Part shown: in pieces, positions 2 through 14,823 of the stretch
Layout: each line of letters begins with the position of its first letter
How positions within the stretch are numbered: position 1 is the stretch's first letter
Origin: Candidatus Altiarchaeota archaeon
Lineage (GTDB): Archaea; Altiarchaeota; Altiarchaeia; IMC4; SCGC-AAA252-I15
DNA: 15,036 bases
Assembly (NCBI GenBank): GCA_043804895.1
Contig: JAZDIN010000064.1
Coordinates: 1 to 15,036 of the forward strand
Reading direction: 5' to 3'
Program-made: the position numbers and the translations under genes
Notes under the pieces: model-generated
Told to the model about the DNA's origin: nothing
The model's database searches: none
The model's input: only the letters and a program-made list of their open reading frames with translations

Positions 2-184
2 AAAGGAGACACAGTCTCGGTAGCCGACAGGAGCGGCCGGGAGTTCGCCCGCGGGATGACGAACTTCAGCTCAGAGGAAGTCGAGAAGATAATGGGGAAA
101 CAATCAGTTGAGATACAGAAGATAACCGGCAAAAAAATAAAGGAGGTAATACACCACGACAACATGGTGCTCGTTGGAAAATGA
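2..184 (+). CDS. proB: Glutamate 5-kinase, C-terminal PUA domain (5'-truncated by window edge)
   Basis: Not in the ORF track. Manual translation of frame +2 gives KGDTVSVADRSGREFARGMTNFSSEEVEKIMGKQSVEIQKITGKKIKEVIHHDNMVLVGK*, matching the ProB PUA tail pattern (GD.V...ARG..N.SS.E..KI.G..S.EI...EVIH.DN.V). Stop TGA 182-184 overlaps the next ATG (ATGA). Confidence 0.88.
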   Translation, partial: KGDTVSVADRSGREFARGMTNFSSEEVEKIMGKQSVEIQKITGKKIKEVIHHDNMVLVGK

Positions 185-969
185 ATCTGACAATCCTTAA
201 GCTCGGGGGTTCGTTGATTACGAGGAAGAGTGACGACAGGCCTGTGGTGAATAAGCCGGTTTTGAAGAGGCTGGCTCGTGAGATTGCCGAAGTCCTATCT
301 GAAAAGCTTATAGGCCTTATAATTGTTCACGGGGCTGGTCCCTTCGGCCACGTGCCAGCCAAAAAGTACGGCCTGGCTGGGGGCCTCAAGGACAGGGTGC
401 AGGTCAGGGGTATGTCGTTGACTCACCAGGGCATGGAGGAGTTGAACTTGCAGGTCGTAGGCGCGCTCATCGATGCTGGGGTGAATGCGATAGCCTTCCA
501 GCCTTCGGCAGGCGGAATATTAGACGATCGGCAGCTCGTGTCTTTTCCAGTAGAGTCAGTGCAGCGTCTTCTTGAACTGGGCTTGGTCCCAGTGGCATAC
601 GGTGACGTTCTCCCTGACTTGAAGACGGGTTTTAACATACTCAGCGGAGATCACCTCGTTCCATACCTTGCAGAGAAGCTGGCCGCTGACAGGGTTGTGC
701 TTGCAACATACTACAATGGTATATTCGACCGAGACCCTGATGAGAAGGGCGCGAAGAAGTACGATTTCGTCAACGAGAGGATTCTAGCCGAACTTGATGC
801 GCGGACGACGAAGGGCACGGACGTCACAGGCGGCATAGGCCGTAAGGTTAGGGAGCTGATGGTGCTCGCCAAACACGGCGTCAAATCGGAGATAATCTCA
901 GGCATGGAACCAGGGTATGTTAAGAGGGCCCTCAAAGGCGAGGAGGGGATTGGAACGAGGATAGAATAA
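181..969 (+). CDS. ipk: Isopentenyl phosphate kinase (amino-acid kinase superfamily)
   Basis: ILKLGGSLIT, IIVHGAGPFGH (IPK-type His), YGDV, SGDHLV and DVTGGIGRKV motifs; 262 aa; MVA-pathway context. Confidence 0.92.
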   Translation: MNLTILKLGGSLITRKSDDRPVVNKPVLKRLAREIAEVLSEKLIGLIIVHGAGPFGHVPAKKYGLAGGLKDRVQVRGMSLTHQGMEELNLQVVGALIDAGVNAIAFQPSAGGILDDRQLVSFPVESVQRLLELGLVPVAYGDVLPDLKTGFNILSGDHLVPYLAEKLAADRVVLATYYNGIFDRDPDEKGAKKYDFVNERILAELDARTTKGTDVTGGIGRKVRELMVLAKHGVKSEIISGMEPGYVKRALKGEEGIGTRIE

Positions 970-1407: not shown

Positions 1408-1456
1408 CTAAGATATTTTAACCGACGTGTATATTACTGTGACAGAGGTGGTTTCT

Positions 1457-2740
1457 GTGAGCATGAGGGATTTTCTGGATAGGCTGGACAAGGATGGTAA
1501 GCTGGTGAAGATTAAGAAGGAAGTCGACCCGCATCTGGAGGCTGCAATGATCCTGAAGGACAAGGACGGTGAGACTGTGCTCTTCGAGAAGGTGAAAGGT
1601 TCGGAGTACAAGGTCGTAGCAGGCCTTTGCGGCAGCAGGGATAATTTCGCCTTGGCTATGGGTATCGATAAGAAGGACCTCCTGTTCAAGATAGCTGAAG
1701 TCATCAAGAAACCCACCAAACCGGAGGTCGTCTCCAAGGGAGCATGCCAGGAGGTCGTTGAGAAGGAAGTTGACCTCACGAAGATACCCATACTCACTCA
1801 CGCGTCAAAGGACCTCGGAGCCTACATCACAGCCGGAGTCTACGTCTCCAAGAACAAGGCCGGCAGACTGAACATGGCCTTCCACAGGAGCTCGCCCATT
1901 GCAAAAGACAGGTTGGTGGCGAGGATATGCCACCGGGACACATACAAGTTCCTTGAGGAAGCAGGCGGTGAACTGCCAGTCTCCATCTGCATCGGCCTCG
2001 ACCCGACGATCCTACTCGCAGCTTCAGTCTCAGCAGGCGACGTCAGCGAGTTGGAGATAGCTAACTCGATGAAGCCGCTGAAGCTTGTGAAATCCATGAC
2101 AAACGACATCCTAATCCCCGCTGACTCTGAGCTGGTGCTTGAAGGTATCCTCACCACGAAGGAGAAGCACACTGAGGGCCCGTTCCCGGACATAAGCGGG
2201 ACATTCGACGTGGTCAGGGAGGAGCCTGTGATAATAGTGAAGAAGATAACCCACCGGAAGAACCCCATATATCAGGGCCTCTTGCCAGCCTACAACGAAC
2301 ACCGCCTCCTCATGGGGATGCCGAAGGAGCCGACCATATACAACGCAGTCAACGAGGTCGCGAAATGCAGGAACGTGCTCATCACACCAGGCGGATGCTG
2401 CTGGCTACACGCGATAGTCCAGATTGAGAAGAAGAACCCGGACGACGGGATGAAAGCAGCCGAGGCCGCGCACAAAGGCCACGGGAGCATGAAACACTGC
2501 GTAGTCGTGGACGACGACGTCGACATATACAACCTAGCAGACGTCGAATGGGCCATAGCAACCAGGATGCAAGCAGACAAGAACGTGAAAATCTGGAAAG
2601 GCCCAGGCTCAAGCCTCGACGCGACAGCTGAGAAGATTGAAGGCTCAGACAGGCTGATGACCGCGAAAGTGGCCATGGACGCGACAATACCCTGGGACAA
2701 GAAAAGAGACAAGTTCGTGAAAGCGAAACTCGGGGAGTGA
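1457..2740 (+). CDS. ubiD: UbiD-family prFMN-dependent decarboxylase, probable trans-anhydromevalonate 5-phosphate decarboxylase (AMPD)
   Basis: UbiD motifs MRDFLDRL..G.L, EGPFPDISG, PGGCCWLH, VVVDDDVDIYN..DVEWAIATR and GSSLD. Start chosen as GTG 1457 after RBS GAGGTGG at 1445-1451 (alternatives ATG 1463 and track start 1427). The specific function is inferred from co-location with AcnX, mvk and ipk. Confidence 0.88.
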   Translation: MSMRDFLDRLDKDGKLVKIKKEVDPHLEAAMILKDKDGETVLFEKVKGSEYKVVAGLCGSRDNFALAMGIDKKDLLFKIAEVIKKPTKPEVVSKGACQEVVEKEVDLTKIPILTHASKDLGAYITAGVYVSKNKAGRLNMAFHRSSPIAKDRLVARICHRDTYKFLEEAGGELPVSICIGLDPTILLAASVSAGDVSELEIANSMKPLKLVKSMTNDILIPADSELVLEGILTTKEKHTEGPFPDISGTFDVVREEPVIIVKKITHRKNPIYQGLLPAYNEHRLLMGMPKEPTIYNAVNEVAKCRNVLITPGGCCWLHAIVQIEKKNPDDGMKAAEAAHKGHGSMKHCVVVDDDVDIYNLADVEWAIATRMQADKNVKIWKGPGSSLDATAEKIEGSDRLMTAKVAMDATIPWDKKRDKFVKAKLGE

Positions 2741-2815
2741 GGGTAAAATAAGGCTCTGGAATTACAACAATTGGGCGGCTCTGATTGTATATATCCCCAT
2801 TTTCCCCGGATTATT

Positions 2816-3823
2816 ATGATGCCAGTCACAGTTCAGAGGCCTCAGGAGTTTTCTGGGCCGGAGTTGCCTGTATTGTCGGGACAGGAGGGGCCTAAGCCTA
2901 CATTAGACGCTATCGAAACCCATAGTAAGGAAGTCGGGAGTATATCCGACAGCTTCAGGAGACTGGCTGAAATCGTCGGGTCCGCGTTGACGTCGCCTCA
3001 AATCCGTGAAGGACTGATAAGGTTGAGTTCTCTATTTTTGAAAAACAGGGAAGATAGTCGTCTCATCCCTGAGCCAAAAAACTCACGGCTAATGGAACTC
3101 TTCTGTCAAGGGAGTTCAGATTATAGAAAAGAGTGGAACAGGGGACTGGTTGACGGTTACCTGGGGAATGAGCGTTGGAAGAGGGGGGATCCACCACCAT
3201 GTCTCAAGCAGGAGAATATGACCTCCTGCGCTTATGCCTCCGTTAGGATGGGGGCGCTCAGGTTCGGGAGAGACATCTCTGAAGATGAGTTCGACCGCGC
3301 TCTGCCTGAATCAAACAAATCTATTCTAGGATGCTCACCTGATGATATAAAGAAGGCACTCGAAAAACTAGGTTATTCGACATATTCCCTGGCGCATGCA
3401 TCCCTAATGGATAAAATAGAAGTCCCCTTCACAACTACTTATGCGAGTGTAGAAGCTTTATTAAAGACGCCAGTTGCTCCGAAGCCTGAGGAGTTCGAGG
3501 GGTTCGTGAGGGAGAACCTGCGGAAGGGAAGGAGTGTCGTAGTTGCGACGATGGGTCACGCAAGGTTGATGACAGGCATTGACGACGAGTATGTCTCTGT
3601 CAATGACCCCTCCGATGGTACGGCGGAGAAATACGAGTTAAAGGATATGCACCAGCTTACCAAGTATCTGGCTAGCATGACGGTCGTGGCGTTCGAGCCT
3701 ATTGGGGAGGTATCTGAGGGAATGTGGAATCAAGAGAGAAAAAATCCACTCCGCCAACTCACTGGAACGATGATGGGACTGGCAGGGATGTCATTGAAAA
3801 AATTGGGAGAAAAGGTGGAATAA
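2816..3823 (+). CDS. C39-like (papain-fold) cysteine peptidase with unknown N-terminal region
   Basis: Q-x5-C motif KQENMTSCAYAS, His in VVVATMGHARLMTG, and V.VNDP: the Cys/His/Asp layout of peptidase C39-like domains. Start taken at ATG 2816, downstream of TATATAT 2788-2794. Confidence 0.7.
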   Translation: MMPVTVQRPQEFSGPELPVLSGQEGPKPTLDAIETHSKEVGSISDSFRRLAEIVGSALTSPQIREGLIRLSSLFLKNREDSRLIPEPKNSRLMELFCQGSSDYRKEWNRGLVDGYLGNERWKRGDPPPCLKQENMTSCAYASVRMGALRFGRDISEDEFDRALPESNKSILGCSPDDIKKALEKLGYSTYSLAHASLMDKIEVPFTTTYASVEALLKTPVAPKPEEFEGFVRENLRKGRSVVVATMGHARLMTGIDDEYVSVNDPSDGTAEKYELKDMHQLTKYLASMTVVAFEPIGEVSEGMWNQERKNPLRQLTGTMMGLAGMSLKKLGEKVE

Positions 3824-3824
3824 C

Positions 3825-4217
3825 ATGATGGACGAGAAGAAGCCTGGGGGACGGCGGTGGAATACGATGGATGATGGACTGATAGAAGGCATAGAACCTA
3901 AGGAGATTCTCATCGGGAAAGAGGACCTTGAGCGGGTGAGGAAGATGGCTGGTGAAACATGCCAAGTCCTACTCTCAGAGAGGTTCGGTATTGGCCCGTG
4001 GAGTATGCTGGATCCTGAGCTGGTGAAATACAAGGGTAAGCCGGGTTGGATGGCTGCAATCTGCCTGACGTTCCCTAAGTCCACGATAAAACCCGATGAT
4101 GCGATAATAGGGGAGATTATCGTGGGTGAGGATTTTAGGCCACTCTACATAACGCCGAATGAGAAGTTGCTGAAGAACATGGAGGAACTGGCTGATAAAT
4201 TGGGGGGAAAAAAGTAG
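3825..4217 (+). CDS. Hypothetical protein
   Basis: 130-aa ORF starting 1 nt after the peptidase stop; operon-like spacing; no family confidently recognised. Confidence 0.65.
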   Translation: MMDEKKPGGRRWNTMDDGLIEGIEPKEILIGKEDLERVRKMAGETCQVLLSERFGIGPWSMLDPELVKYKGKPGWMAAICLTFPKSTIKPDDAIIGEIIVGEDFRPLYITPNEKLLKNMEELADKLGGKK

Positions 4218-4226
4218 AGTACTCTC

Positions 4227-4583
4227 ATGGATGATTTAACCGATGACCTAGTCTGGCAGGGCTTGAACTTAGACCAATACAATAAGCTTGACCCCGATTC
4301 CCAAGAGCAGATAAGACGGCGGGCATCCCAGTTCAGGCGCCTTAAAGATATGGGTTTGGTTGCTGAATTGCTCATCGCGGTCGCCTCAGAGCTGGGTGAT
4401 GGGAAATCGGATGTGATTGCGTCGATAATCGACGGCCGAAATCCTGATGGCGAGGAGTTCGTCCGTAAAGTCGTCATTGCGTATAAGAAATCCGGGATGA
4501 AGACAGATATCGGGGAATTCTACAGGAAAAACTACACGGGGGGAATAGCAGCATTCTTGGCTGGATCTCATTTGTTGAAGTAG
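4227..4583 (+). CDS. Hypothetical protein (probably helical)
   Basis: 118-aa ORF 9 nt after the previous stop and followed by a terminator hairpin. Confidence 0.6.
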   Translation: MDDLTDDLVWQGLNLDQYNKLDPDSQEQIRRRASQFRRLKDMGLVAELLIAVASELGDGKSDVIASIIDGRNPDGEEFVRKVVIAYKKSGMKTDIGEFYRKNYTGGIAAFLAGSHLLK

Positions 4584-4677: not shown

Positions 4678-5877
4678 GTGCATCTTACTAAGGAGGATGA
4701 GGCTGTTTTGGGCGGTTCTGAGGGTAATGCTGCTGCCAAGTCGATGAAGATTCTAGTTGCTTTGGGTGAGATTTACGGGGCTGAGAAGCTAATTCCCATT
4801 AGCTCCGTGCAGGTTGCTGGAGTCTCTTACGATAATCTCGGTGACCCGGGCCTCGAATACCTCGCTGAGCTTGCGAAGGATGGCCAGGTGAAGGTCACAA
4901 CGACTTTGAATCCAGCCGGGATGGACCTAGTCGACTGGAAGAAGCTGGGGATAACCCCAGAGTTCGCGGAAAAACAGAACAATGTCATTGAGGCGTTCGA
5001 CAAGATGGGCGTCATAACGTGCTGCACGTGCACCCCATACCTTATCGGCAACCTCCCCCACTACGGCGAACACATCGCATGGAGCGAATCCAGCGCAGTC
5101 ACATTCATAAACTCTGTCATAGGAGCTAGGACGAACCGCGAAGGAGGCCCCTCCGCCATCGCGGCCGCGATGATAGGGAAGACGCCCGAGTACGGCCTAC
5201 ACCTTGAGGGGGAGCGGAAACCTGACATCACCTTCAATGTGGCTGCGCACGTTAAAACGCTTCCAGATTTCGGAGCCCTCGGTTACTTCATAGGCAAGAA
5301 CGCGGAGGGCATGATTCCATACATACAGGGAATCGGCGAGGCCTCCGTCGACCAGTTGAAGAGCTTCAGCGCATCGGTCGTCACATACGGTTCTAAGCCG
5401 CTCTACCACATGGAGGGGATAACTCCGGAGGCCAGCAAATATGATCCGACCAGAAAACGGGTCACTGTAACGCAGAAGGAGTTGGACGAATCATACAAGG
5501 CAATCAATGATGAGACGGGGGATATAGAGTTCGTCTCCCTCGGGTGTCCTCACTGTTCCATTGCTGAAATCGGGGAGATAGCCGGGTTCCTGAAAGGTAA
5601 GAAGGTGAAAGATACTGTCGAACTGTGGGTTGCCACGGCTAGGCCGACTAAGTACCTTTCGGATTCAAGGGGTTACACGAAGACAATCGAGGACGCTGGC
5701 GGGAAATTCGCGTGCGACACATGCATGGTAGTAGCACCCTTGAAAGGCAGGTTCAAGAATGTGGCGACGACGAGTGCGAAGGCCTGCTTCTACTGTCGCG
5801 GCAAGAACAAGATGCAGGTGAAGGTCGGCACGTTCCAACAGTGCCTGGATGCGGCGGTGACTGGAAGATGGAACTGA
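4678..5877 (+). CDS. acnX: Aconitase X catalytic subunit = phosphomevalonate dehydratase large subunit
   Basis: M.LT.E....L.G..G start, TTLNPAG, CTCTPY, AWSESSA..FINSVIGARTNREGGPSA, SLGCPHCS and DTCMVV (Fe-S ligand Cys motifs). GTG start after AGGGTGG RBS. Confidence 0.92.
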   Translation: MHLTKEDEAVLGGSEGNAAAKSMKILVALGEIYGAEKLIPISSVQVAGVSYDNLGDPGLEYLAELAKDGQVKVTTTLNPAGMDLVDWKKLGITPEFAEKQNNVIEAFDKMGVITCCTCTPYLIGNLPHYGEHIAWSESSAVTFINSVIGARTNREGGPSAIAAAMIGKTPEYGLHLEGERKPDITFNVAAHVKTLPDFGALGYFIGKNAEGMIPYIQGIGEASVDQLKSFSASVVTYGSKPLYHMEGITPEASKYDPTRKRVTVTQKELDESYKAINDETGDIEFVSLGCPHCSIAEIGEIAGFLKGKKVKDTVELWVATARPTKYLSDSRGYTKTIEDAGGKFACDTCMVVAPLKGRFKNVATTSAKACFYCRGKNKMQVKVGTFQQCLDAAVTGRWN

Positions 5878-6248
5878 AGGGAAGGATAATTAACAAGGGG
5901 AAGGCTGAGGGTGAGGCGCTAGTCACAAAGGACCCCATATCATTCTACGGCGGAGTAGACCCGAAGACGGGTATAATCACTGACAAGGATAACGAACTCA
6001 ACGGCCAGAGCATCAAAGACAAGATACTAGTCTTCCCCACAGGGAAGGGTAGCACCGTAGGCCCTTACACCATATACCAGCTCGCTAAGCTCGGAACAGC
6101 CCCGAAGGCGATGGTGAACCGGGAGTGCGAGACCATAGTCGCAGTAGGCGCGATAATCTCTGACATACCGTGCGTAGACAAGATAGACATAACAAAGATA
6201 AAGACTGGAGACAGGCTGAGGTTAGACGGGGACACGATAACCATCTAA
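5868..6248 (+). CDS. Aconitase X swivel subunit = phosphomevalonate dehydratase small subunit (DUF126)
   Basis: MELKGRII.KG.AEGEALVT..PISFYGGVDPKTG and GKGSTVG (catalytic Ser motif). The true start is ATG 5868, after GGTGA 5856-5860, overlapping the large-subunit end by 10 nt; the track start 5712 is an over-extension. Confidence 0.92.
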   Translation: MELKGRIINKGKAEGEALVTKDPISFYGGVDPKTGIITDKDNELNGQSIKDKILVFPTGKGSTVGPYTIYQLAKLGTAPKAMVNRECETIVAVGAIISDIPCVDKIDITKIKTGDRLRLDGDTITI

Positions 6249-6249
6249 C

Positions 6250-6663
6250 ATGGCAAACCCTGATTGCAAGTCATGTAGGCTCAACAGTGCCTGCAGGGAC
6301 TCGAAGGCCTCATGGGTCTTCTTCTTCATCGGCGTCATAGCCACAGTCGCGTTGAGAATCATAGAACCCATCAGGGTGTTCAATCCGCTTTACGGTAAGA
6401 TGGCATGGTATGTAGGGGTAGCTGGATTCCTGCTATTCTTCATATACAAGTACAACGCACTCAAGAAGACGTCAACACTCATCCAAGAAGCAGGTCTGAA
6501 GGAGAAGCTGGCATCGGCTTCCCCATTATCCGAATACGATTACTCCCTTGTGTCAGAAATCGTCTGCGCCCAGGACAACTGGAAGGAACGGACAAACTAC
6601 TTTGTTATATTCGTACTCTCGGCCGCCGCCTTACTATTTGCCTTGTGGGTTGACCTGGCTTGA
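6250..6663 (+). CDS. Small membrane protein (about 3 TM helices) with N-terminal CxxC-x5-C
   Basis: Hydrophobic segments WVFFFIGVIATVAL, AWYVGVAGFLLFFIY and YFVIFVLSAAALLFALW; N-terminus DCKSCRLNSAC; starts 1 nt after the small-subunit stop. Confidence 0.75.
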   Translation: MANPDCKSCRLNSACRDSKASWVFFFIGVIATVALRIIEPIRVFNPLYGKMAWYVGVAGFLLFFIYKYNALKKTSTLIQEAGLKEKLASASPLSEYDYSLVSEIVCAQDNWKERTNYFVIFVLSAAALLFALWVDLA

Positions 6664-6748: not shown

Positions 6749-7006
6749 ATGGTTTGTCCAAGAGCTAAGGGCTCAACACGGAGTATGAGCGGGCTTAAGC
6801 CCGTGCTGGTGAACGACAGTTCAAAGTCCTTCATAGTAGACCCGAAGGTTTTTATCGTCTGGAGCCTCTGCAACGGCAAGAACACGGTCGATGACATACG
6901 GGTCAAGTTCGGCAGCCGAATCGGCCTCGACGAAGGCGAGAAGGAGGATATAAGCATCCCTGATGTGATAAACTCGCTGCAGCGGATAGGCCTCGTAGAA
7001 AACTAG
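6749..7006 (+). CDS. PqqD-like / RiPP recognition element (winged-helix) small protein
   Basis: 85 aa; beta-strand N-half then IVWSLCNGKNTVDDI...VINSLQRIGLVE, the typical PqqD pattern (IW.L.DG..TV.EI...L..L...GLI). RBS GGGGTGG upstream. Confidence 0.65.
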   Translation: MVCPRAKGSTRSMSGLKPVLVNDSSKSFIVDPKVFIVWSLCNGKNTVDDIRVKFGSRIGLDEGEKEDISIPDVINSLQRIGLVEN

Positions 7007-7512
7007 GCTGACGGCTTATTGTCCTTGCATATCTGGTTTACCTGTTCCTCGGTTGGGCATTCGCATTTCCCTTGCTCCCCCTCCTTGCATTTCACGTACT
7101 TCAGGTCCCTGCAGCAGCACACCATCCCCTCCTCAGTGGACGGGAACACCTTCCTGTACGAGCATCTGGCAGCGCACGGGTTGTTTTCGCCGACAGGGTA
7201 TGTGCATTCACCGTCCCCCACAACTGTGCTGTTCGTGTACCCTATGCTCCTGCATTGGCTTACGCAGTCTGACACGAGCTCAGACTCTGTCGCGTTAACG
7301 CAACCGCAGTGCTGGCAGAAGCCGTACTTGCATGGGAAAGCGTTCTCGCACTCCTCTGAGTTCTCAAGCAGTCCATTCCCGCAGTTGTTGGTCTTGCTAG
7401 GTTGTGTGATGTTTACAGGGCATCCGATATCGTTGCAATCTTCTTTAGCCTGGCTGACGCAACCTGCGGAAAGGACTATTAATGTCAGAACTAAAATAAT
7501 ATATTCATCCAT
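7003..7512 (-). CDS. Cysteine-rich exported (lipo)protein
   Basis: Signal peptide ending in lipobox-like LSAGC; 21 Cys in 169 aa; contains CGNGLLENSEEC resembling the Myxococcus-type Cys-rich repeat (CGNG..E..E.C). Its ATG overlaps the mvk stop (TGATG). Confidence 0.75.
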   Translation of the reverse strand: MDEYIILVLTLIVLSAGCVSQAKEDCNDIGCPVNITQPSKTNNCGNGLLENSEECENAFPCKYGFCQHCGCVNATESELVSDCVSQCRSIGYTNSTVVGDGECTYPVGENNPCAARCSYRKVFPSTEEGMVCCCRDLKYVKCKEGEQGKCECPTEEQVNQICKDNKPSA

Positions 7513-8444
7513 CAGACACCAATCCTAGTCTTATATGCGATGTAGCCTTCAGACTCTATTGCTGAAGCCACCTTATCCTGCAACTTTTTACCGGGAGTCA
7601 AGGCCACCATAAGTCCGCCTCGTCCAGTCCCAGTGAGTTTCGCTCCGTATGCGCCTTCCTGCCGTGCTATGCCGACAAGGAGGTCGAGTTCCTCGCAGCT
7701 TACTGTAATGTCCTGGAGTAGCTTGTGGTTCCTGTCCATCAGTTCCCCTACATTCTTTATGTCTCCGCCTGTGAGAGCCTTCTTCGCTAAGTTGACTATC
7801 TCAGTGTACTCTGAGAATATCTTCTCATACTCCTTCAGGTGAGCCTCCTTATTCTTCTTCACGTCTTCCACGACTTCCTTAGTGCTTGAAGTCAGTCCAG
7901 TGTTCCCGAGGACTATCTCAACAGGGTTCGGCATCCTAAGCCGGTCCATCGTATTACGCCCTCCTTGGAGGCTTTTCACGAACCATATTAGTCCACCGTA
8001 GACGGCTGCAGTGTTGTCTATGCCTGAAGGCTTACCATGGTACCCCCTCTCCCCCTCATAGGCCACCTCGTTTATCCTGGCGTCGTCGTATCCTAAGTTG
8101 AAGTGCTGGTCTAGTGCGCGGGCTATAGCAGCAGCGGAAGCTGCTGATGCGCCGACTCCGGAGGCGGCTATTAGGTCTCCTGCCAATGTCACCTTCACCG
8201 GCGTCTTCTCAACGTCTATCCCGCACGCAGTGAATATTAACTTATTAGACTCCACCTGCTCCGCGTACTTCTCCACCTTGTAGCCGGGCGTGGCAGGCCT
8301 ATCATCGACTAGCTCGTAGGACTTCGAGTTCTCGACGACGGCGGTCGTTTTGCTCCCCAAGGCAGAAGCTATCGCAGGCAGACCGTAGACTACAAAATGT
8401 TCCCCGAACAGTATCGTCTTCCCGAAACCATATCCCTCAGACAT
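7512..8444 (-). CDS. mvk: Mevalonate (5-)kinase, GHMP family
   Basis: GKTILFGEHFVVYG, ASGVGASAA (ATP loop), YHGKPSGIDN and GAKLTGTGRGG. Start ATG 8444 preferred over 8465 because a TATA-like TATATATT lies 23-30 nt upstream. Confidence 0.93.
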   Translation of the reverse strand: MSEGYGFGKTILFGEHFVVYGLPAIASALGSKTTAVVENSKSYELVDDRPATPGYKVEKYAEQVESNKLIFTACGIDVEKTPVKVTLAGDLIAASGVGASAASAAAIARALDQHFNLGYDDARINEVAYEGERGYHGKPSGIDNTAAVYGGLIWFVKSLQGGRNTMDRLRMPNPVEIVLGNTGLTSSTKEVVEDVKKNKEAHLKEYEKIFSEYTEIVNLAKKALTGGDIKNVGELMDRNHKLLQDITVSCEELDLLVGIARQEGAYGAKLTGTGRGGLMVALTPGKKLQDKVASAIESEGYIAYKTRIGV

Positions 8445-8466
8445 GGTATCAGTATCGCATTTCACT

Positions 8467-8596
8467 AATATATAGCGAATGACATAAGTTGTTGAGCTTT
8501 GGCTTGTTGGAACTCAGCCGAATTTCTATGTCATTCGATATATTCGATAGCAAATGTACCTTGTCAAAAGTTCAAATACATTTGTTATCGTCTATA
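8467..8596. other. Intergenic double inverted-repeat element (candidate structured RNA or operator array)
   Basis: CGAATGACATA 8476-8486 / TATGTCATTCG 8527-8537 (perfect 11 bp); CGATAGCAAATGTA 8545-8558 / TACATTTGTTATCG 8577-8590 (13 of 14, one G.U); direct repeat ATTCGATA at 8533 and 8542. Confidence 0.6.
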
Positions 8597-8598
8597 AG

Positions 8599-8838
8599 TC
8601 AGGTGTACTCTTTCAGCTTCCTCTGGTGGGACTTGTGCTTGCATATCCTGCACATGCGGAGGCCTACCTTTTCCGCGGCGTTCCTGGACTTGAAGTATAG
8701 CCTGTTCTCCCTCGTGATGCTCTGCCGGTAATGGCATTCACACCCTATCCTGTGGTACAAGTGGTCCTCAGAATTCCTGCTTGAGACGTACCTACTTCTC
8801 CTAACGATATCCACAAGCTTTGAGAACAGCCCAACCAC
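8599..8838 (-). CDS. Stand-alone Ada-type metal-binding domain protein
   Basis: YVSSRNS...YHRIGC.....I..ENRLYFKSRNAAEKVGLRMCRIC matches the Ada Zn-binding-like pattern (YH.P.C...I...N...F.S..EA...G.RPC..C). GTG start with AGGA upstream. Confidence 0.7.
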   Translation of the reverse strand: MVGLFSKLVDIVRRSRYVSSRNSEDHLYHRIGCECHYRQSITRENRLYFKSRNAAEKVGLRMCRICKHKSHQRKLKEYT

Positions 8839-8860
8839 AGAATCCTATGCGTTCGCTGGC

Positions 8861-9811
8861 TTATAAGGTTTTCGCACCGTCTGCGACCTTGTATCTCTTA
8901 TACCTGAGGTCGTGGTCTTTAAGTTCTCTGGAGACTTCTTTCACCCACTTCTCCAGGGTGAAGACGTACACCTGGCTTCCGCCTGCGACGTTCCAGTACA
9001 CCTGCAGCCCGCGCTCCCTCATGCCTGCGACGAGGTTCACCGCGTCCTTCATCTCCCCCCTAATCACAGACATGCCCATGTCATTGAACATCCCGTGGAC
9101 TGTCTCAGCCTCAGCCTCCATGAGGGCCATGAAACCAAGGAGGTCTTTCCTGTCGACTATGTCCTGCAGCTGTCCGATATGCTTTTTAGACTCATCGCTC
9201 CTCTTCGGGTAGTGTGGGTGTCCGACGACTCTGAGGTGTAGGTCGTCTGCGCTCAACCTCTTGATAGTGAAAGGTATCGCGTATACTATCAGGTCGCGGA
9301 AGAAGGATGCCCTCGCAAGTTGCGTCACCTTCATCTTCCCCTCCCGGTCTATGGTGCACTGGCTTAATCCGCCCACGAGGCTCCTGTATGCGGTCTCGCT
9401 CACCCCCCTGCTAAGCTCAATCATCCTCTCCATCGGAAGGCCCAGCCCAAGCAGTTCATCAACTGCCGTGACAAGTGCCGCGGCTCCGGAGTCGCTTGAG
9501 CCTGTGAGTATGTTATGGTTTAATGAGTCCACCTTAATTCCCGTATACTCCACAGCCTCTGATTGCATCTTCCGTATCATATCTAAGGCGCCCTTCACCC
9601 TCGGGCCGTGCGGTGAAGCTCCATCAAGAGTAAACTCTATCCCAGAATCCGTCGCATAGGCTTTGGTTTCCGTCCTCACCTTCTCGAACTCGTCAGTTAT
9701 GGCGAGGCTCGCATGGCTGTGCCCTGAAATCCTCCTCCTATACTCCCTGAAACCTTCGGCGAAGACGACCGGCAGCCCCGGATAGGCCACTGCGTGCGAA
9801 CTGGATTTCAC
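8861..9811 (-). CDS. GHMP-family diphosphomevalonate-decarboxylase homolog of the mevalonate 3-kinase (Thermoplasma Ta1305-like) type
   Basis: AYPGLPVV, VRTETKAYA, SLNHNILTGSSDSGAA, RGVSETAYRSLVGGL, GMSVIRGEM and VAGGSQVYV parallel Ta1305 motifs as I recall them (AYPTIGVV, IRSETRIYA, SQNFGILSGSSDAGAA, RAVSESAGRSLFGGL, GVNVIRENM, VTGGSNVYV). It lacks the KYWG and DAGPN motifs of true decarboxylases. Start GTG 9811 preferred (track 9829). Confidence 0.78.
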   Translation of the reverse strand: MKSSSHAVAYPGLPVVFAEGFREYRRRISGHSHASLAITDEFEKVRTETKAYATDSGIEFTLDGASPHGPRVKGALDMIRKMQSEAVEYTGIKVDSLNHNILTGSSDSGAAALVTAVDELLGLGLPMERMIELSRGVSETAYRSLVGGLSQCTIDREGKMKVTQLARASFFRDLIVYAIPFTIKRLSADDLHLRVVGHPHYPKRSDESKKHIGQLQDIVDRKDLLGFMALMEAEAETVHGMFNDMGMSVIRGEMKDAVNLVAGMRERGLQVYWNVAGGSQVYVFTLEKWVKEVSRELKDHDLRYKRYKVADGAKTL

Positions 9812-9813
9812 AT

Positions 9814-9840
9814 GATATATTAGATGCACTACAATATATC
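9814..9840. promoter_or_regulatory. Symmetric bidirectional TATA-box pair
   Basis: GATATATT 9814-9821 and its exact reverse complement AATATATC 9833-9840; each lies about 22-30 nt upstream of one of the two divergent start codons (9845 + and 9811 -). Confidence 0.6.
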
Positions 9841-9844
9841 CCCC

Positions 9845-10504
9845 ATGCCAGCTGTTATCTTCGACTTAGACGGCACCCTCGTAGACCTGTTCGACGTCCA
9901 CTTACATGCCTTCCAAGAAATCGTGGAAAGGGAATGTGGGATGAGGTTCGAGAAATCAGACCTTGAACCCCACTATGGCAAATCAGGAGAGGAGATACTG
10001 AAAATCTATTTCGAAAAGCAAGGCTTAAAGGATGCTGACTGGAAAGACCTCGCTGAAAAAAGAAGGACGCTGGCGATAGCTAACCTAAAAAGTTGCGCCC
10101 TACTCTCCGGGGCAGAAAAACTTCTCAAAGCGGTGAAGAAATCAGGCATGAAGACAGCGCTCGGGACCTCAAACCCTCGTCAGATAGGGGAGGCGATACT
10201 CAACGCCTGTGGCCTTTCCGGCTTCTTTGACTTTAAGGCTTACCGTGACAGCGGACTTGCCGGCAAACCCGCGCCTGACATCTTCCTCCACGTCGCAAAG
10301 GAGATGGGGGTCGACCCCAAAGAATGCGTAGTAATTGAGGACTCCGTGTTCGGAGTATCCGCTGCCAAAGCGGCTGGGATGAAGTGCATCGCAGTCGCTA
10401 CTGGAACGCACACGATCGATGAGCTTAGGGGGCAGAAACCTGACCTCCTAGTCGCAACGCTCGAGGAAGTTGATTTAAAATCGATAAAAACACTATTAAC
10501 CTAA
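9845..10504 (+). CDS. HAD-superfamily phosphatase (beta-PGM/CbbY-like, subfamily IA)
   Basis: Motif I IFDLDGTL, motif II GTSN, GKPAPDIF and motif IV VIEDSVFGVSAAKAAGM. Start ATG 9845. Confidence 0.92.
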   Translation: MPAVIFDLDGTLVDLFDVHLHAFQEIVERECGMRFEKSDLEPHYGKSGEEILKIYFEKQGLKDADWKDLAEKRRTLAIANLKSCALLSGAEKLLKAVKKSGMKTALGTSNPRQIGEAILNACGLSGFFDFKAYRDSGLAGKPAPDIFLHVAKEMGVDPKECVVIEDSVFGVSAAKAAGMKCIAVATGTHTIDELRGQKPDLLVATLEEVDLKSIKTLLT

Positions 10505-10911: not shown

Positions 10912-11692
10912 GCTCCAGTTCTCCTATCATAATCGGCTTTAATAGCTTTCAGTAGTTCTCTCTCCGTTATGATGCCTATTAACCTATCCATCCTATCCAG
11001 TACCGGGAACCTCCTGAAACCGTAGAAGTACATTAAGTAGCATGCATGGCTTATCTGGGTGTTTGGCTCCACCTCGACGATGTCGGCTGACATTATCTTA
11101 GACACTGTCGGGTCATCATAGCCCTTATCTCCTGCGATGAGTTCCTCAAGATGTCGCTTTTGGTCACGACCCCGATTATGTTTTTGCCGTCCTTGACTAT
11201 GATGCAACCCATCTTAGAGTCGATCATCATCCTGACAACCTCGGCAGCCTTCGTAGAAGATGGCACTGTCTTTGCTGCCCTGCCCATATAATCAGACACT
11301 TTGCCTTTTGCCGTAGGCGAGTTCATCTCGAATATGAGGTCTTTGACTGTGACGACTCCGACAACTGTCAATCCGTCAACGACTGGCAGGAACCTGAGGC
11401 CGCGTTCTATCATCGTCTCTGCAGCGTTAGCTATTCTCGTATCAGGCGTTATGGTGATGACATCCCTCGTCATCAAGTCGGAGACCTTAGCCCCTTCGAT
11501 TGTGCCCTTCAAGGCTATCCTCTTCAAGATATCCCACTCAGTCAGAACTCCTCTTAATTCCCCCCCCTCAACGATGACAAGGGAGACGATATTCTTCTTC
11601 GTCATAAGGCAGGCAGCGTCGTAGGCTGACGTCGAAGGCGTCGCTGTAACTACGTTAGCTGTCATCACCTCAGTAACCTTATCTCGCAACAT
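10908..11692 (-). pseudogene. Four-CBS-domain protein split by a single-base frameshift near 11141-11150
   Basis: ORF 11093-11707 carries CBS1-3 up to IIGVVTKSDILR. ORF 10908-11207 continues in another frame with ELIAG...VSKIMSADIVEVEP...FRRFPVLD..LIGIITEREL (CBS4). RBS AGGAG precedes ATG 11692. It could equally be a sequencing error. Confidence 0.75.
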
Positions 11693-11783
11693 GGATACTC
11701 TCCTCATGAAAAAATGGATTGGAGGCTTAAATATGTGCGCATTCGACCAGTCTTAAATAGGATTGTGTCGATAGTTATTACTC

Positions 11784-12773
11784 ATGGAGATACAGGATAC
11801 CATCAAGTCGAAGTGCGCTTCTGTCGAGCCATTCCTGCGGAAGTATGCCTATGTCGGGGATGCAGGCATACAGAAGATGATACTCCACCCCATCGAAGCC
11901 GGTGGTAAGAGGATTAGGCCGTGCCTGACCATACTCGCCTGCGAGGCCGTTGGAGGGGACACGAGGAAGGTGTTGCCTGCTGCGGCTGCTGTTGAACTAC
12001 TTCACACGTTCACACTCGTCCACGACGACATAATGGACCACGACTACCAAAGGAGGGGTAGGCCGACAGTCCACGCCATCTGGGGGGAGGAGATGGGAAT
12101 CATCGTCGGCGACACACTATATTCCGGAGCATTCAAAGCCCTGGTTGACGTCAGAGGCAAGGGAGTGTCAGACAAACTTGTCCTAGACGCAGTCAACGTC
12201 CTCGTCAAAGCAAACGGCGAACTGCAGCACGGGCAGATAATGGACATGCTCTTCGAGAAGATGGAGTCCGTAAGCGAGGAAGAGTACATGGATATGATAC
12301 AAAAGAAGACCGGCTCCCTCATTGAAGCCTCTGTGGAAATCGGCGGCATAATCGGCGGCGGAAGCGCGAAGGAACTTAAGGCTTTGACCACGTTCGGCGC
12401 AAACAGCGGAGTCGCCTTCCAGATTAAGGACGACGTCTTGGACCTGACAGCGGACAGGAAGGATTTCGGGAAGCCGATAGGCTCTGACATACGCTCCGGC
12501 AAGAAGACGCTCATCATAGTCCACGCCATGGAACACGCCGGGGAGAGGGACATCAAGTCCATACTCAGGGTACTAGGCCGCGAGGAAGCGTCTGAGAAGG
12601 AAGTCAGCCAGGTAATAGGCAAGCTCAAAGAGCTCGGGTCAATCGACTACGCAGACCAGAAGGTGGCCGACCTAATAGCTGAAGGCAAGAAAGCCCTCAA
12701 CAGGCTGCCAAAAACAGATGCAAGGGAATCACTGAAAGCACTAGCAGACTACCTGGTGAAAAGAAGGACGTGA
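11784..12773 (+). CDS. idsA: Geranylgeranyl diphosphate synthase (short-chain trans-prenyltransferase)
   Basis: GGKRIRP, FARM LHTFTLVHDDIMD...RRG with Phe five residues before the motif (archaeal GGPPS chain-length signature), GQ.MD, KKTG, SARM FQIKDDVLD and GSDIRSGKKT. TATA-like TTAAATA at 11753-11759. Confidence 0.92.
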   Translation: MEIQDTIKSKCASVEPFLRKYAYVGDAGIQKMILHPIEAGGKRIRPCLTILACEAVGGDTRKVLPAAAAVELLHTFTLVHDDIMDHDYQRRGRPTVHAIWGEEMGIIVGDTLYSGAFKALVDVRGKGVSDKLVLDAVNVLVKANGELQHGQIMDMLFEKMESVSEEEYMDMIQKKTGSLIEASVEIGGIIGGGSAKELKALTTFGANSGVAFQIKDDVLDLTADRKDFGKPIGSDIRSGKKTLIIVHAMEHAGERDIKSILRVLGREEASEKEVSQVIGKLKELGSIDYADQKVADLIAEGKKALNRLPKTDARESLKALADYLVKRRT

Positions 12774-13469: not shown

Positions 13470-13790
13470 TCAGTTCAACGCATCCAACACTCTCTTACTA
13501 AGTTCCGGGTCTTTGGTTTCGTAACTCCTCTTTCTGACAATCTCTAACAATCCCTTTCTAGCACTCTCTTTCACATCACCAACCCCATTTAATGTTGCTT
13601 CAACCAGTCCCCTGAGAGCATTATCTCTACTTTTAGGCCCCTGTCTACTGTCTTTAAGCATCCCTAAGCAAGCATCAACATCTTCGACTGTCTTAGGGAT
13701 ATATCCTCTCAGATTTTGCTCATCATATCCTTGATTCGTATCTCCTGTTTTGGTGGCTACATTGCTTTTTATAACTGCCATACTAACCAT
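13470..13790 (-). CDS. Hypothetical helical protein (possible HEAT-like pair)
   Basis: ~106-aa ORF divergent from fni. Amphipathic helices SRDNALRGLVE and VKESARKGLLEIV. Start uncertain (13793, 13790 or 13781). Confidence 0.5.
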   Translation of the reverse strand: MVSMAVIKSNVATKTGDTNQGYDEQNLRGYIPKTVEDVDACLGMLKDSRQGPKSRDNALRGLVEATLNGVGDVKESARKGLLEIVRKRSYETKDPELSKRVLDALN

Positions 13791-13836
13791 CAATCATTTC
13801 TCCTTTAATACTTTAGCCTTCGAATTATCTGATACT

Positions 13837-14823
13837 ATGATAGGCGACCGTAAGCATGATCATCTGAGGATTTGCGTCGAGAAGGATGTTGAGGCCGGTG
13901 ATGCTGGATTCTCTTCTGTTCGTTTGGATCATAGGGCTTCTCCTGAGATTAGTATGGAAGACGTTGACACTAAGGTTAAGTTCCTCGGGAAGGAGATGGG
14001 TTTCCCCCTCATATTCGAGGCCATGACCGGTGGGACCTCTGAAGCTCAGAAGATTAACAAAGCCCTAGCCAGGATAGCTCAGGAGAATCTAATCGGAATG
14101 GGTGTCGGAAGCCAACGGGTTGCTTTGGATGATCCCTCACTTGAAGGAACTTACGTTGTCCGCGACGTCGCGCCAGACATCCTCCTCATAGGCAACGTAG
14201 GCGCAGTCCAACTCAACTACGGCTACGGCATCAAGGAGTGCAGGAAGGCTGTTGAGATGATAGGCGCTGATGCATTGGCGTTGCACATGAACCCGTTGCA
14301 GGAGGCCATCCAACCTGAAGGAAACACGGACTTCAGGGGGTTAATCGCGAAGATGAACAAGGTCTCGAAGGAGCTTACTGTTCCGGTCATCGCGAAGGAA
14401 GTCGGCTGCGGCATAGACTATGAGACTGCGAGGCGGCTTAAGGTCGCGGCCTTCGACTCTGGCGGATTAGGGGGGACATCCTGGAGTCTTGTGGAAAGCC
14501 ACAGGAGCAGGGGGCTGATGCGCGCAGTCGGCGCAACCTACTCTACCTGGGGGATACCAACGGTAGAGTGCATCAAACAACTCTCAAGACTGGAGAAGCC
14601 GCTCATCGCATCAGGCGGAGTTAGAAGCGGCTTGGATGCTGCGAAGGCGATAGCGCTCGGCGCTGACGTCGTCGGCGTTGCATTACCTGTCCTTAAAGCT
14701 TACTACTCCAACGGCGAAAACGGCGTCAGAGACTACGTGAAAAGGTTCATTGCAGAGTTCAAGACCGCAATGTACCTCACAGGCTCAAGCAGGGTCAGCT
14801 ACCTTAGGGGGAAGGTCTCCTGA
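13837..14823 (+). CDS. fni: Type 2 isopentenyl-diphosphate delta-isomerase (FMN-dependent IDI-2)
   Basis: RKHDHL, AMTGG, MGVGSQR, NVGAVQL, HMNPLQEAIQPEG, KEVGCG, GGTSW and ASGGVRSGLDAAKAIALGA. Start ATG 13837 with TTTAATA at 13804-13810; the track start 13750 is an over-extension. Confidence 0.95.
   Translation: MIGDRKHDHLRICVEKDVEAGDAGFSSVRLDHRASPEISMEDVDTKVKFLGKEMGFPLIFEAMTGGTSEAQKINKALARIAQENLIGMGVGSQRVALDDPSLEGTYVVRDVAPDILLIGNVGAVQLNYGYGIKECRKAVEMIGADALALHMNPLQEAIQPEGNTDFRGLIAKMNKVSKELTVPVIAKEVGCGIDYETARRLKVAAFDSGGLGGTSWSLVESHRSRGLMRAVGATYSTWGIPTVECIKQLSRLEKPLIASGGVRSGLDAAKAIALGADVVGVALPVLKAYYSNGENGVRDYVKRFIAEFKTAMYLTGSSRVSYLRGKVS

Follow-up and report, generated by a model that had tools for sequence, protein, structure and literature searches.

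The window analyzed here comprises 15,036 nucleotides, positions 1 to 15,036 of contig JAZDIN010000064.1, from the metagenome-assembled genome (MAG) GCA_043804895.1 of a Candidatus Altiarchaeota archaeon. It carries a gene cluster for the archaeal mevalonate (MVA) pathway, in which one gene (8861..9811 (-)) encodes a GHMP protein with the fold of diphosphomevalonate decarboxylase (DMD). Judged by its sequence, this protein appears to be a non-decarboxylase member of the DMD family that resembles mevalonate 3-kinase (M3K) and lies outside the characterized M3K clade. In Thermoplasmatales, M3K is accompanied by mevalonate-3-phosphate 5-kinase (M3P5K) and bisphosphomevalonate decarboxylase (MBD), and neither of these was detected by profile searches across Altiarchaeota. 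With little more than even confidence, we take the gene product to be an active mevalonate 3-kinase that does not decarboxylate and that may form a side branch, not described before, in the synthesis of lipid precursors.

Identity and Fold of the M3K-Like Protein

The open reading frame (ORF) of the M3K-like gene is open over 8861..9829 (-). Translation likely starts at GTG 9809-9811, because this codon agrees with the database gene call and with the N-termini of homologues, and the resulting protein of 316 amino acids ends at the stop codon TAA 8861-8863. A preliminary description, prepared from the letters of the window without database searches, had read this ORF as a DMD-fold protein that is M3K-like and not a decarboxylase. 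Both points were borne out. In Pfam, the protein matches M3K_C (PF21433) with 58 bits and MVD-like_N (PF22700) with 54 bits, where the cut-off is 27 for each. The top NCBIfam model is NF040848, mevalonate-3-kinase, with 142 bits, and the models for DMD and phosphomevalonate decarboxylase (PMD) score 59 and 55 bits, respectively. When the Protein Data Bank (PDB) was searched, Ta1305, the M3K of Thermoplasma acidophilum (4rkp), was the best match (E-value 2.2e-25), and DMDs came next at about 3e-07. A structural model built with AlphaFold2 from a 30-sequence alignment has a pLDDT of 95.8 and a pTM of 0.92. Foldseek with this model returned 4RKP and 4RKZ on top, at a TM-score of 0.90 and an E-value of 2e-31, and DMD and PMD structures at TM-scores of 0.83-0.89. 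The resemblance of the window protein to M3K is far above chance. Its named homologues come from MAGs of Candidatus Altiarchaeota or Altiarchaeales.

Diagnostic Residues

Relatives of the protein were gathered from a library of 1.84 billion representatives (133 sequences) and by a word-indexed search (68 sequences), and 43 were labelled via NCBIfam. Residue columns were read from a 106-sequence alignment containing 62 members of the Altiarchaeota clade and the groups M3K, PMD, DMD and INT, the last of which includes proteins of Heimdallarchaeota, Iainarchaeota/Diapherotrites and Bathyarchaeia. A catalytic Asp, corresponding to Asp283 of SeMDD, Asp281 of SsoDMD and Asp309 of PtoMBD, is conserved in DMD, PMD and MBD and not in M3K, and its replacement in an archaeal DMD leaves a 3-kinase without decarboxylation (PMC9254496). 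In the window protein this site is taken by the Ala of NVAGGSQ, encoded by GCA at 8984..8986 (-). The column holds Ala in 61/62 members of the Altiarchaeota clade, Gly or Thr in 11/11 INT sequences and Thr or Val in 11/11 M3Ks; Asp is found there in 9/9 PMDs and 11/12 DMDs. The Glu of VSETAYRS, encoded by GAG at 9395..9397 (-), is aligned to Glu140 of the T. acidophilum enzyme (TaM3K), which is reported to exclude phosphorylated substrates (Vinokur et al., 2015). Glu occupies this column in all 62 members of the clade, in 10 of 11 INT sequences and in all 11 M3Ks, and Gly does so in 8/9 PMDs and 12/12 DMDs. Both codons lie exactly where the preliminary description had placed them, and both residues keep the equivalence that it had given them.

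Two arginines accompany this Glu. The one within VSETAYRS (9383..9385 (-)) is aligned to the family-wide carboxylate-binding Arg (Arg144 of TaM3K and SeMDD) and is invariant in 106/106 aligned sequences, including 62/62 of the Altiarchaeota clade. The other, within IKRLS (9257..9259 (-)), is aligned to Arg185 of TaM3K; it is Arg in 62/62 members of the clade, 10/11 INT sequences and 11/11 M3Ks, and the position is variable in PMD and DMD. The GHMP ATP-binding motif, TGSSDSGAA, lies at 9479..9505 (-), with its Asp at 9491-9493. GSSD is kept in 62/62 sequences of the clade, and this Asp is found only in the Altiarchaeota, INT and M3K groups, with Ser or Ala at the same place in PMD and DMD. ATP-binding and catalytic positions are thus kept across 62 sequences that are just 38-61% identical to the window protein. 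The HMMER alignment to Ta1305 (4rkp) gives the same correspondences: opposite the Ala stands the Thr of IVTGGSN, opposite the Glu and the Arg of VSETAYRS stand the Glu and the Arg of VSESAGRS, and opposite the Arg of IKRLS stands the Arg of YQRNPSD. These Ta1305 positions are presumably Thr275, Glu140, Arg144 and Arg185, a numbering that assumes a 19-residue N-terminal tag on the 4rkp chain.

Phylogenetic Placement

The main maximum-likelihood tree has 45 rows, including four MBD sequences obtained by translating Thermoplasmatales and Micrarchaeum loci, and its supports are given as ultrafast bootstrap/SH-aLRT. Of the 63 Altiarchaeota-type sequences, 11 were used in this tree and 27 in a quick tree of 70 rows, which agrees with it. 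In the 45-row tree, the M3K-like superclade is supported by 100/100, and the Altiarchaeota clade inside it (100/99) is sister to six INT rows of DPANN and Heimdall origin (95/97). Eight M3K-labelled rows, which score 346-538 bits with NF040848 and are taken as Thermoplasmatales-type, form a clade with 100/99 support, and the MBDs form another (100/100). The preliminary description had called for a phylogeny with DMD, PMD, M3K and MBD references; in it, the window protein does not group with PMD or DMD and is set apart from PMD, DMD and MBD by a branch with 100/100 support. From the tree placement and the diagnostic columns together, the M3K-like protein is not a PMD, DMD or MBD.

Absence of M3P5K and MBD

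All genomes compared in this study are MAGs, and absence calls rest on profile searches. The window genome (G000; handles of this kind denote genomes, and those beginning with L denote loci) comprises 1.58 Mb in 71 contigs and is 88.7% complete. It was searched together with the other Altiarchaeota genomes, 61 in all, with NF008996 for M3P5K and NF040847 for MBD. Neither model had a match in G000, and neither was matched over its cut-off in any of the 61 genomes. In five control genomes, M3P5K or an M3P5K-like protein was found in every case (163-269 bits), and MBD was found with 369-639 bits in four of them (Oxyplasma, Acidiplasma, E-plasma and Micrarchaeum A_DKE), with none in the Iainarchaeum MAG. 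The initial remark that no Thermoplasma-type partner is recognizable in the window thus holds for the window, the G000 assembly and the 61 Altiarchaeota genomes. A full Thermoplasma-type pathway elsewhere in the genome, which had been raised as an explanation of the gene, did not appear in these searches. Nor is mevalonate kinase (Mvk) absent, as it is in a Thermoplasma-type pathway: its gene adjoins the M3K-like gene.

Weak matches to both models can be accounted for. Those to NF008996 reach at most 103 bits and come from proteins of about 300 amino acids in 11 Altiarchaeota genomes. Two of them, L066 and L059, were considered as M3P5K candidates and rejected, as they score 333 bits with the 2-phosphoglycerate kinase model NF003259. 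Such matches do not follow the distribution of the M3K-like gene, since a family devoid of it has them in 6/8 genomes; just 3/23 carriers have one, and G000 has no homologue. As for NF040847, its weak matches are DMDs, from G032 and from the Altiarchaeum-type family.

Distribution Among Altiarchaeota

The M3K-like gene, scoring 129-185 bits with NF040848, is present in 23 of the 61 Altiarchaeota genomes. The carriers are G000 with 19 of 20 relatives in its family, and the members sampled from two further families (1/1 and 2/2). Two other families have none (0/22 and 0/8). AcnX, the dehydratase of the archaeal MVA pathway, is found in 52/61 genomes, among them 21/23 carriers, and also in 29/30 genomes of the two families without the M3K-like gene. 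There is one Mvk per carrier genome, with none found in G046, so that the idea of a specialized second Mvk in carriers was rejected. Profile searches found no DMD-family decarboxylase in 22 of the 23 carriers. The remaining one is G032 (MAG LFW-28; loci L050/L119), which has the M3K-like gene and a true DMD (339 bits) and lacks AcnX and UbiX. In G032 the M3K-like gene adjoins the genes for GGPPS and type 2 IPP isomerase (IDI2), with no mvk or HAD gene nearby, and PMK=1 is given for this MAG in a published survey (PMC11052028, Table S3). The gene had been suggested to serve as a backup for the oxygen-sensitive Fe-S and prenylated flavin mononucleotide (prFMN) steps of the archaeal pathway. Because G032 carries the gene with a DMD and without AcnX, a bypass of AcnX and UbiD cannot be its general role.

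Gene Order Around the M3K-Like Gene

In the window, the gene next downstream on the strand of the M3K-like gene that belongs to the MVA pathway is mvk (7512..8465 (-); TIGR00549 226 bits, cut-off 163), the sole mvk of G000. Its start is probably ATG 8444, which gives a distance of about 416 nt and agrees with the roughly 420 nt estimated at first. On the other side, a HAD-IA hydrolase gene (9845..10504 (+); Pfam HAD_2) is divergent and back-to-back with the M3K-like gene, again as had been described. This arrangement was followed through 24 distinct Altiarchaeota loci, of which 20 with at least 1.3 kb downstream were scored for mvk and 20 with at least 700 nt upstream for HAD. In 11/20 loci, mvk is the next same-strand gene downstream at less than 400 nt (23-45 nt in six, 273-398 nt in five); it lies 2.2-5.8 kb downstream in four more and is out of range in five. 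A divergent HAD gene lies within 100 nt in 12/20 loci and at 0.6-4.7 kb in five more, and is out of range in three. The HAD protein itself scores 136 bits with a beta-PGM-family hydrolase model, under the cut-off of 153.

A wider scan of contigs covered 80 loci: 18 from Altiarchaeota, 33 from Thermoplasmata and 29 from others. The flanks of the 18 Altiarchaeota loci contain no M3P5K and no DMD-family decarboxylase gene. In 27 of the 29 other loci, from Micrarchaeota, Iainarchaeota, Aenigmatarchaeota, Marsarchaeota and others, the M3K-like gene has an M3P5K or M3P5K-like gene as a neighbour at no more than about 1.3 kb. This neighbour is usually directly downstream, and in most cases an MBD-, DMD- or PMD-like gene and isopentenyl phosphate kinase (IPK) come after it. 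This adjacency points to a mevalonate 3-kinase role for the sister (INT) clade. In the 33 Thermoplasmata loci M3K stands alone, and M3P5K and MBD are side by side elsewhere (e.g., in Oxyplasma). Thus, mvk of Altiarchaeota fills the operon slot that M3P5K holds in sister lineages. Wherever a locus extends far enough to reveal the neighbours, the M3K-like gene is found among MVA and isoprenoid genes, and in two such loci (L083 and L084) it adjoins IPK. The expected linkage of its homologues to MVA genes is therefore present.

Two other arrangements were seen during this survey. P0086, a protein of 547 amino acids, is a natural M3P5K-M3K fusion, with 213 bits to the M3P5K model in its N-terminal part and 369 bits to the M3K model in its C-terminal part. 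At L095 7989-10749, a locus of a Candidatus Iainarchaeum MAG, an M3P5K-like gene (163 bits) stands between two divergent M3K-like paralogues, and this genome has no MBD match.

The Mevalonate Pathway Cluster of the Window

The preliminary description had regarded the archaeal MVA cluster of the window as already complete through AcnX and UbiD, and the genes for IPK, UbiD, AcnX, Mvk and IDI2 indeed all exceed curated cut-offs. IPK is encoded at 181..969 (+) (NF040647 224.5 bits, cut-off 120). A UbiD-family decarboxylase gene follows at 1427..2740 (+) (TIGR00148 355 bits, cut-off 245); it adjoins the AcnX and IPK genes in relatives, and this gene context suggests that its product acts as anhydromevalonate phosphate decarboxylase (AMPD). 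The phosphomevalonate dehydratase-type AcnX (4678..6248 (+)) consists of a large subunit (4678-5877; PF04412 502 bits) and a small one (5868-6248; PF01989 120 bits), and NF003046 gives 191 bits, over the cut-off of 163. Beyond the HAD gene are those for a CBS-domain protein (11093..11707 (-)), a short-chain prenyl diphosphate synthase of the GGPP type (11784..12773 (+)) and IDI2 (13750..14823 (+); TIGR02151 387 bits, cut-off 281). The synthase matches Pfam polyprenyl_synt with 251.5 bits (cut-off 27) and stays under the NCBIfam equivalog cut-offs (IdsA, 352.7 vs 468). HMGS and HMGR are encoded elsewhere in G000, outside the window.

UbiD-type decarboxylases need prFMN, which is supplied by UbiX. 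UbiX was not found in G000, where the best match has 34.5 bits against a cut-off of 109. As 55 of the 61 Altiarchaeota genomes, including 3/4 same-genus relatives of G000, have UbiX over the cut-off, its absence here is probably an assembly gap, and the idea that the M3K-like gene goes with a loss of UbiX was rejected on the same count. G000 has four GHMP-superfamily genes, namely mvk, the M3K-like gene, an archaeal shikimate kinase and an HddA-like sugar kinase. With all four accounted for in this way, a second DMD-family gene was also rejected. No Rfam family reached its gathering score in the window, and a scan of 7400-10000 for promoters and terminators gave counts not above those of shuffled sequence.

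Possible Roles of the M3K-Like Enzyme

If the gene product is the non-decarboxylating mevalonate 3-kinase that we favour, it would use ATP to phosphorylate a tertiary 3-hydroxyl group, as in the first half-reaction of DMD, and would stop there. Its most likely substrate would be (R)-mevalonate and its product mevalonate 3-phosphate. The enzyme would thereby open a branch at mevalonate parallel to Mvk. Judging from gene order, its gene would as a rule share a transcript with the single mvk and form a divergent pair with the HAD gene, and in the branch Mvk may add a 5-phosphate, the HAD enzyme may remove a phosphate, or both. Kinase activity, mevalonate as the substrate and the position of the branch are each what we infer from residues and context.

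Several observations weigh against this reading. The NF040848 score of 142 bits is far from the equivalog cut-off of 440, which is passed in 0/61 Altiarchaeota genomes. Identity to Thermoplasmatales M3Ks is only about 25-29%, and the window protein branches outside the clade of M3K-labelled, Thermoplasmatales-type rows. The N-terminal substrate loop is F-A-E-G in the Altiarchaeota clade, as against L-L-G-G in M3K, K-Y-W-G in DMD and K-Y-H-G in PMD. Arg71, Thr140 and His198 are invariant in the Altiarchaeota clade only and are not common to M3K. With this clade-specific loop and these residues, the substrate preference of the enzyme may differ from that of M3K. No M3P5K, MBD or recognizable lyase is at hand, so that mevalonate 3-phosphate would have no known use and its formation would compete with Mvk for mevalonate. 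The absence of partners from the 88.7%-complete G000 is weak when taken alone, and it is the phylum-wide absence that carries the argument. Finally, in the literature from 2019 onward, as represented by titles and the beginnings of abstracts, no characterized enzyme of the Altiarchaeota type was found.

Two sub-cases of the 3-kinase reading, both already raised in the preliminary description, differ in what becomes of the product, and we rank them about equal, each being rather unlikely by itself. One is a hybrid, ATP-driven route, in which the M3K-like enzyme and Mvk would together make mevalonate 3,5-bisphosphate, to be converted into isopentenyl phosphate or anhydromevalonate phosphate by an enzyme not yet recognized or non-enzymatically, and so to rejoin the pathway at UbiD or IPK. 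Such a route would make sense of mvk in the slot of M3P5K, given the 11/20 loci in which mvk follows closely and the 27/29 other loci with M3P5K. The fusion P0086 shows that 3- and 5-kinases cooperate elsewhere, and IPK is adjacent in L083 and L084. However, no DMD-family decarboxylase is present in 22/23 carriers and no candidate lyase was identified. The 3,5-bisphosphate is described as needing MBD and its Asp (PMC9254496). The single Mvk of each genome must already serve the AcnX route, and G032, with a DMD and without AcnX or UbiX, speaks against a bypass of the Fe-S and prFMN steps as the general role. The other sub-case is a kinase/phosphatase valve, which would park mevalonate as its 3-phosphate, the HAD enzyme releasing it or clearing mis-phosphorylated species, and would in this way buffer flux. 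Here the support comes from the HAD gene. Its divergent pairing is conserved (12/20 loci within 100 nt), matches at the level of orthologues (at least 124 bits) occur in 17/23 carriers, HAD genes lie near the M3K-like operons of other DPANN (L109, L115 and L136), and a second HAD paralogue stands beside AcnX in G008, G009 and G048. But the protein is a generic HAD-IA member, similar to sugar phosphatases and beta-PGM, without a specificity signal among NCBIfam models and PDB relatives, and in a family devoid of the M3K-like gene, 5/8 genomes have similar HADs (122-126 bits). Three loci with upstream room have no HAD gene in range, and G032, G035, G005 and others are without a close one. A cycle that burns ATP would also be costly for energy-limited anaerobes.

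A different substrate, the third option of the preliminary description, is unlikely in our view, though some features that set the clade apart speak for it. Instead of free mevalonate, the enzyme would then phosphorylate mevalonate 5-phosphate or some other 3-hydroxy acid, tertiary or secondary. In SeMDD, positions 17-21 form the phosphate-binding loop, and 17-21 and 72 are among the regions for substrate phosphate and catalysis (PMC4357925). The clade-invariant F17-A18-E19 and Arg71 lie at or near these positions, and Thr140 and His198 add to them. M3K of Picrophilus, moreover, also phosphorylates 3-hydroxyisovalerate and 3-hydroxybutyrate (PMC4357925). On the other hand, the equivalents of Glu140, Arg144 and Arg185 are all invariant, and the gene keeps its isoprenoid neighbours wherever these can be seen. 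The extra acidic residue, Glu19, in what is the phosphate-binding loop of DMD would also speak against a phosphorylated substrate. That the protein is a relic, or a non-catalytic regulatory paralogue, of an ancestral Thermoplasma-type operon seems improbable. Loss of the partners, together with full operons in the sister clade, would fit a relic, but the ATP-binding and catalytic positions are invariant despite the divergence of the 62 sequences. That 23 genomes from three families retain the gene (19/20 in the family of the window) and that its operon position is conserved argues for a retained function. Very improbable is a real decarboxylase (PMD, DMD or MBD), or a full Thermoplasma-type pathway hidden elsewhere, for which the DMD fold and the 88.7% completeness of the assembly could be cited. 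The catalytic Asp is Ala in 61/62 sequences, and the separation from PMD, DMD and MBD has 100/100 support. A hidden pathway is opposed by the 0/61 result for M3P5K and MBD with models that detect them in the controls (MBD 4/5, M3P5K-like 5/5), and the weak M3P5K-model matches are 2-phosphoglycerate kinases (333 bits, NF003259), which are absent from G000.

Comparison with Known Enzymes and Pathways

The closest characterized enzymes are the Thermoplasmatales M3Ks (Ta1305, structures 4RKP/4RKS/4RKZ; PTO1356; EC 2.7.1.185). The window protein shares with them the fold (TM-score 0.90), the lack of the catalytic Asp, the Glu140/Arg144/Arg185 set, the SGSSD-type ATP motif and the superclade supported by 100/100. 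It differs in its identity of about 25-29%, its separate clade, Ala instead of Thr at the Asp site, the loop F-A-E-G instead of L-L-G-G, and the additional invariant Arg71, Thr140 and His198. Thermoplasmatales lack Mvk and have M3P5K and MBD, as described in the literature (PMC6107057) and seen in our controls, whereas the window genome shows the reverse, with Mvk, AcnX, UbiD and IPK. The INT-clade genes of Micrarchaeota, Iainarchaeota, Aenigmatarchaeota, Marsarchaeota and Heimdallarchaeota are nearer in the tree (sister, 95/97) and have the same Glu/Arg/Arg set, Gly or Thr instead of Asp at the catalytic site and an isoprenoid context. They differ in what follows, which is M3P5K or an M3P5K-like gene in 27/29 loci and mostly a decarboxylase, while the 18 Altiarchaeota loci have neither.

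A laboratory parallel exists in the Asp-to-Thr and Asp-to-Val mutants of Saccharolobus DMD, in which loss of Asp yields a pure 3-kinase of mevalonate 5-diphosphate (PMC9254496). The Ala of the window protein is read by the same logic. These engineered enzymes still bind the diphosphate substrate; in the window protein the positions that bind the diphosphate are exchanged, with Glu in place of Gly at 140 and F-A-E in place of K-Y-W at 17-19. At the level of the pathway, mvk, the AcnX subunits, UbiD, IPK, IDI2 and the GGPP-type synthase of the window match the gene set of the archaeal AcnX/UbiD cluster. In its published description, that pathway does without a DMD homologue (PMC9254496), but the window has an M3K-like one.

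M3K together with MBD was described by Hoshino and Gaucher as confined to Thermoplasmata and a small number of Micrarchaeota (PMC6107057, 2018). A later study, which recognizes four variants of the MVA pathway, names Altiarchaeota among the DPANN in its trees of M3K, M3PK and MBD, and its Table S3 gives M3K=1, M3P5K=0 and MBD=0 for 2/4 Altiarchaeota genomes (PMC11052028, 2024). The same table has AcnX1/2, AMPD and IPK for GCA_014727915, the MAG of locus L076, and PMK and DMD for GCA_902384455. The bare occurrence of the orphan gene is thus already in print; in the portions of that publication available to us, there is no discussion of its lack of partners, of its association with mvk and HAD or of the residues. 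The definition of the clade, the control-checked absence of partners throughout the phylum, the replacement of M3P5K by mvk and the clade-specific pocket residues appear to be new.

In the known variants, DMD-family proteins have defined sets of partners, and yet an M3K-type kinase persists here in 23 genomes without either M3P5K or MBD. It also adjoins Mvk, inside the one variant for which no DMD homologue should be required. Should the enzyme act on mevalonate, 3-phosphorylated mevalonate would have a fate or function not known so far in anaerobic, CO2-fixing archaea, or else would be part of an undescribed regulatory valve. The former would amount to a new route, of interest for the evolution of the pathway and for engineering of isoprenoid synthesis with low ATP demand or oxygen tolerance. 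We see a small chance that one clade of Altiarchaeota possesses a fifth variant of the lower MVA pathway, in which the orphan 3-kinase and Mvk make mevalonate 3,5-bisphosphate, from which isopentenyl phosphate or anhydromevalonate phosphate arises with no DMD-family decarboxylase involved. It would need an unrecognized enzyme of the cluster, or spontaneous conversion, and it would offer an ATP-driven, irreversible alternative to the reversible steps of Fe-S dehydratase and prFMN decarboxylase. Whatever the activity, the contrast in synteny between M3K-like-mvk and M3K-like-M3P5K-decarboxylase gives a picture of how pathway variants may exchange modules.

Other Genes of the Window and Its Relatives

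HAD genes recur in these clusters beyond the pairing with the M3K-like gene. A second HAD-IA paralogue (95-110 bits to the window HAD) is found beside the gene for the large subunit of AcnX in at least three Altiarchaeota genomes, at G008:C118:3468-4118, G009:C137:1123-1752 and G048:C92:47420-48067, and the same three genomes also have a HAD gene adjoining the M3K-like gene. Further HAD genes belong to M3K-like operons of other DPANN lineages (L109, L115 and L136). HAD hydrolases seem to be recurrent members of DPANN mevalonate clusters.

Between UbiD and AcnX, the region 2771-4583 (+) encodes a protein of 350 amino acids with a weak match to the papain-like Peptidase_C39_2 (29.5 bits, cut-off 24), as well as two small ORFs of 130 and 118 amino acids that belong to no family. 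None of these three proteins was matched in the clusters of relatives.

The spacer between the M3K-like gene and mvk, a gap that the preliminary description had left empty, contains a conserved small ORF of 79 amino acids at 8599..8838 (-). It is rich in His and Cys (YH..CxC ... CRIC). A spacer alignment of five genomes shows an ORF of about 80 amino acids conserved in the window and in G038, G039, G050 and G051, the spacers of the relatives being 273-313 nt long. The product has a weak match to the Pfam family Ada_Zn_binding (18.6 bits, under the cut-off of 23), and could act as a small regulator of the cluster that binds Zn.

Two further uncharacterized proteins without a family are shared with relatives. 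One, of 137 amino acids (6250-6663 (+)), is a membrane protein with an N-terminal CxxC...C, and is found beside mvk/AcnX in G050 and G044. The other, of 169 amino acids (7003-7512 (-)), is Cys-rich with a signal-like N-terminus and is conserved in G038 and G050. The CBS-only protein (11093-11707) is likewise conserved in relatives (e.g., L039, L040, L042, L044 and L078), where it keeps its place between HAD and GGPP synthase, and it may regulate the isoprenoid cluster by sensing nucleotides.

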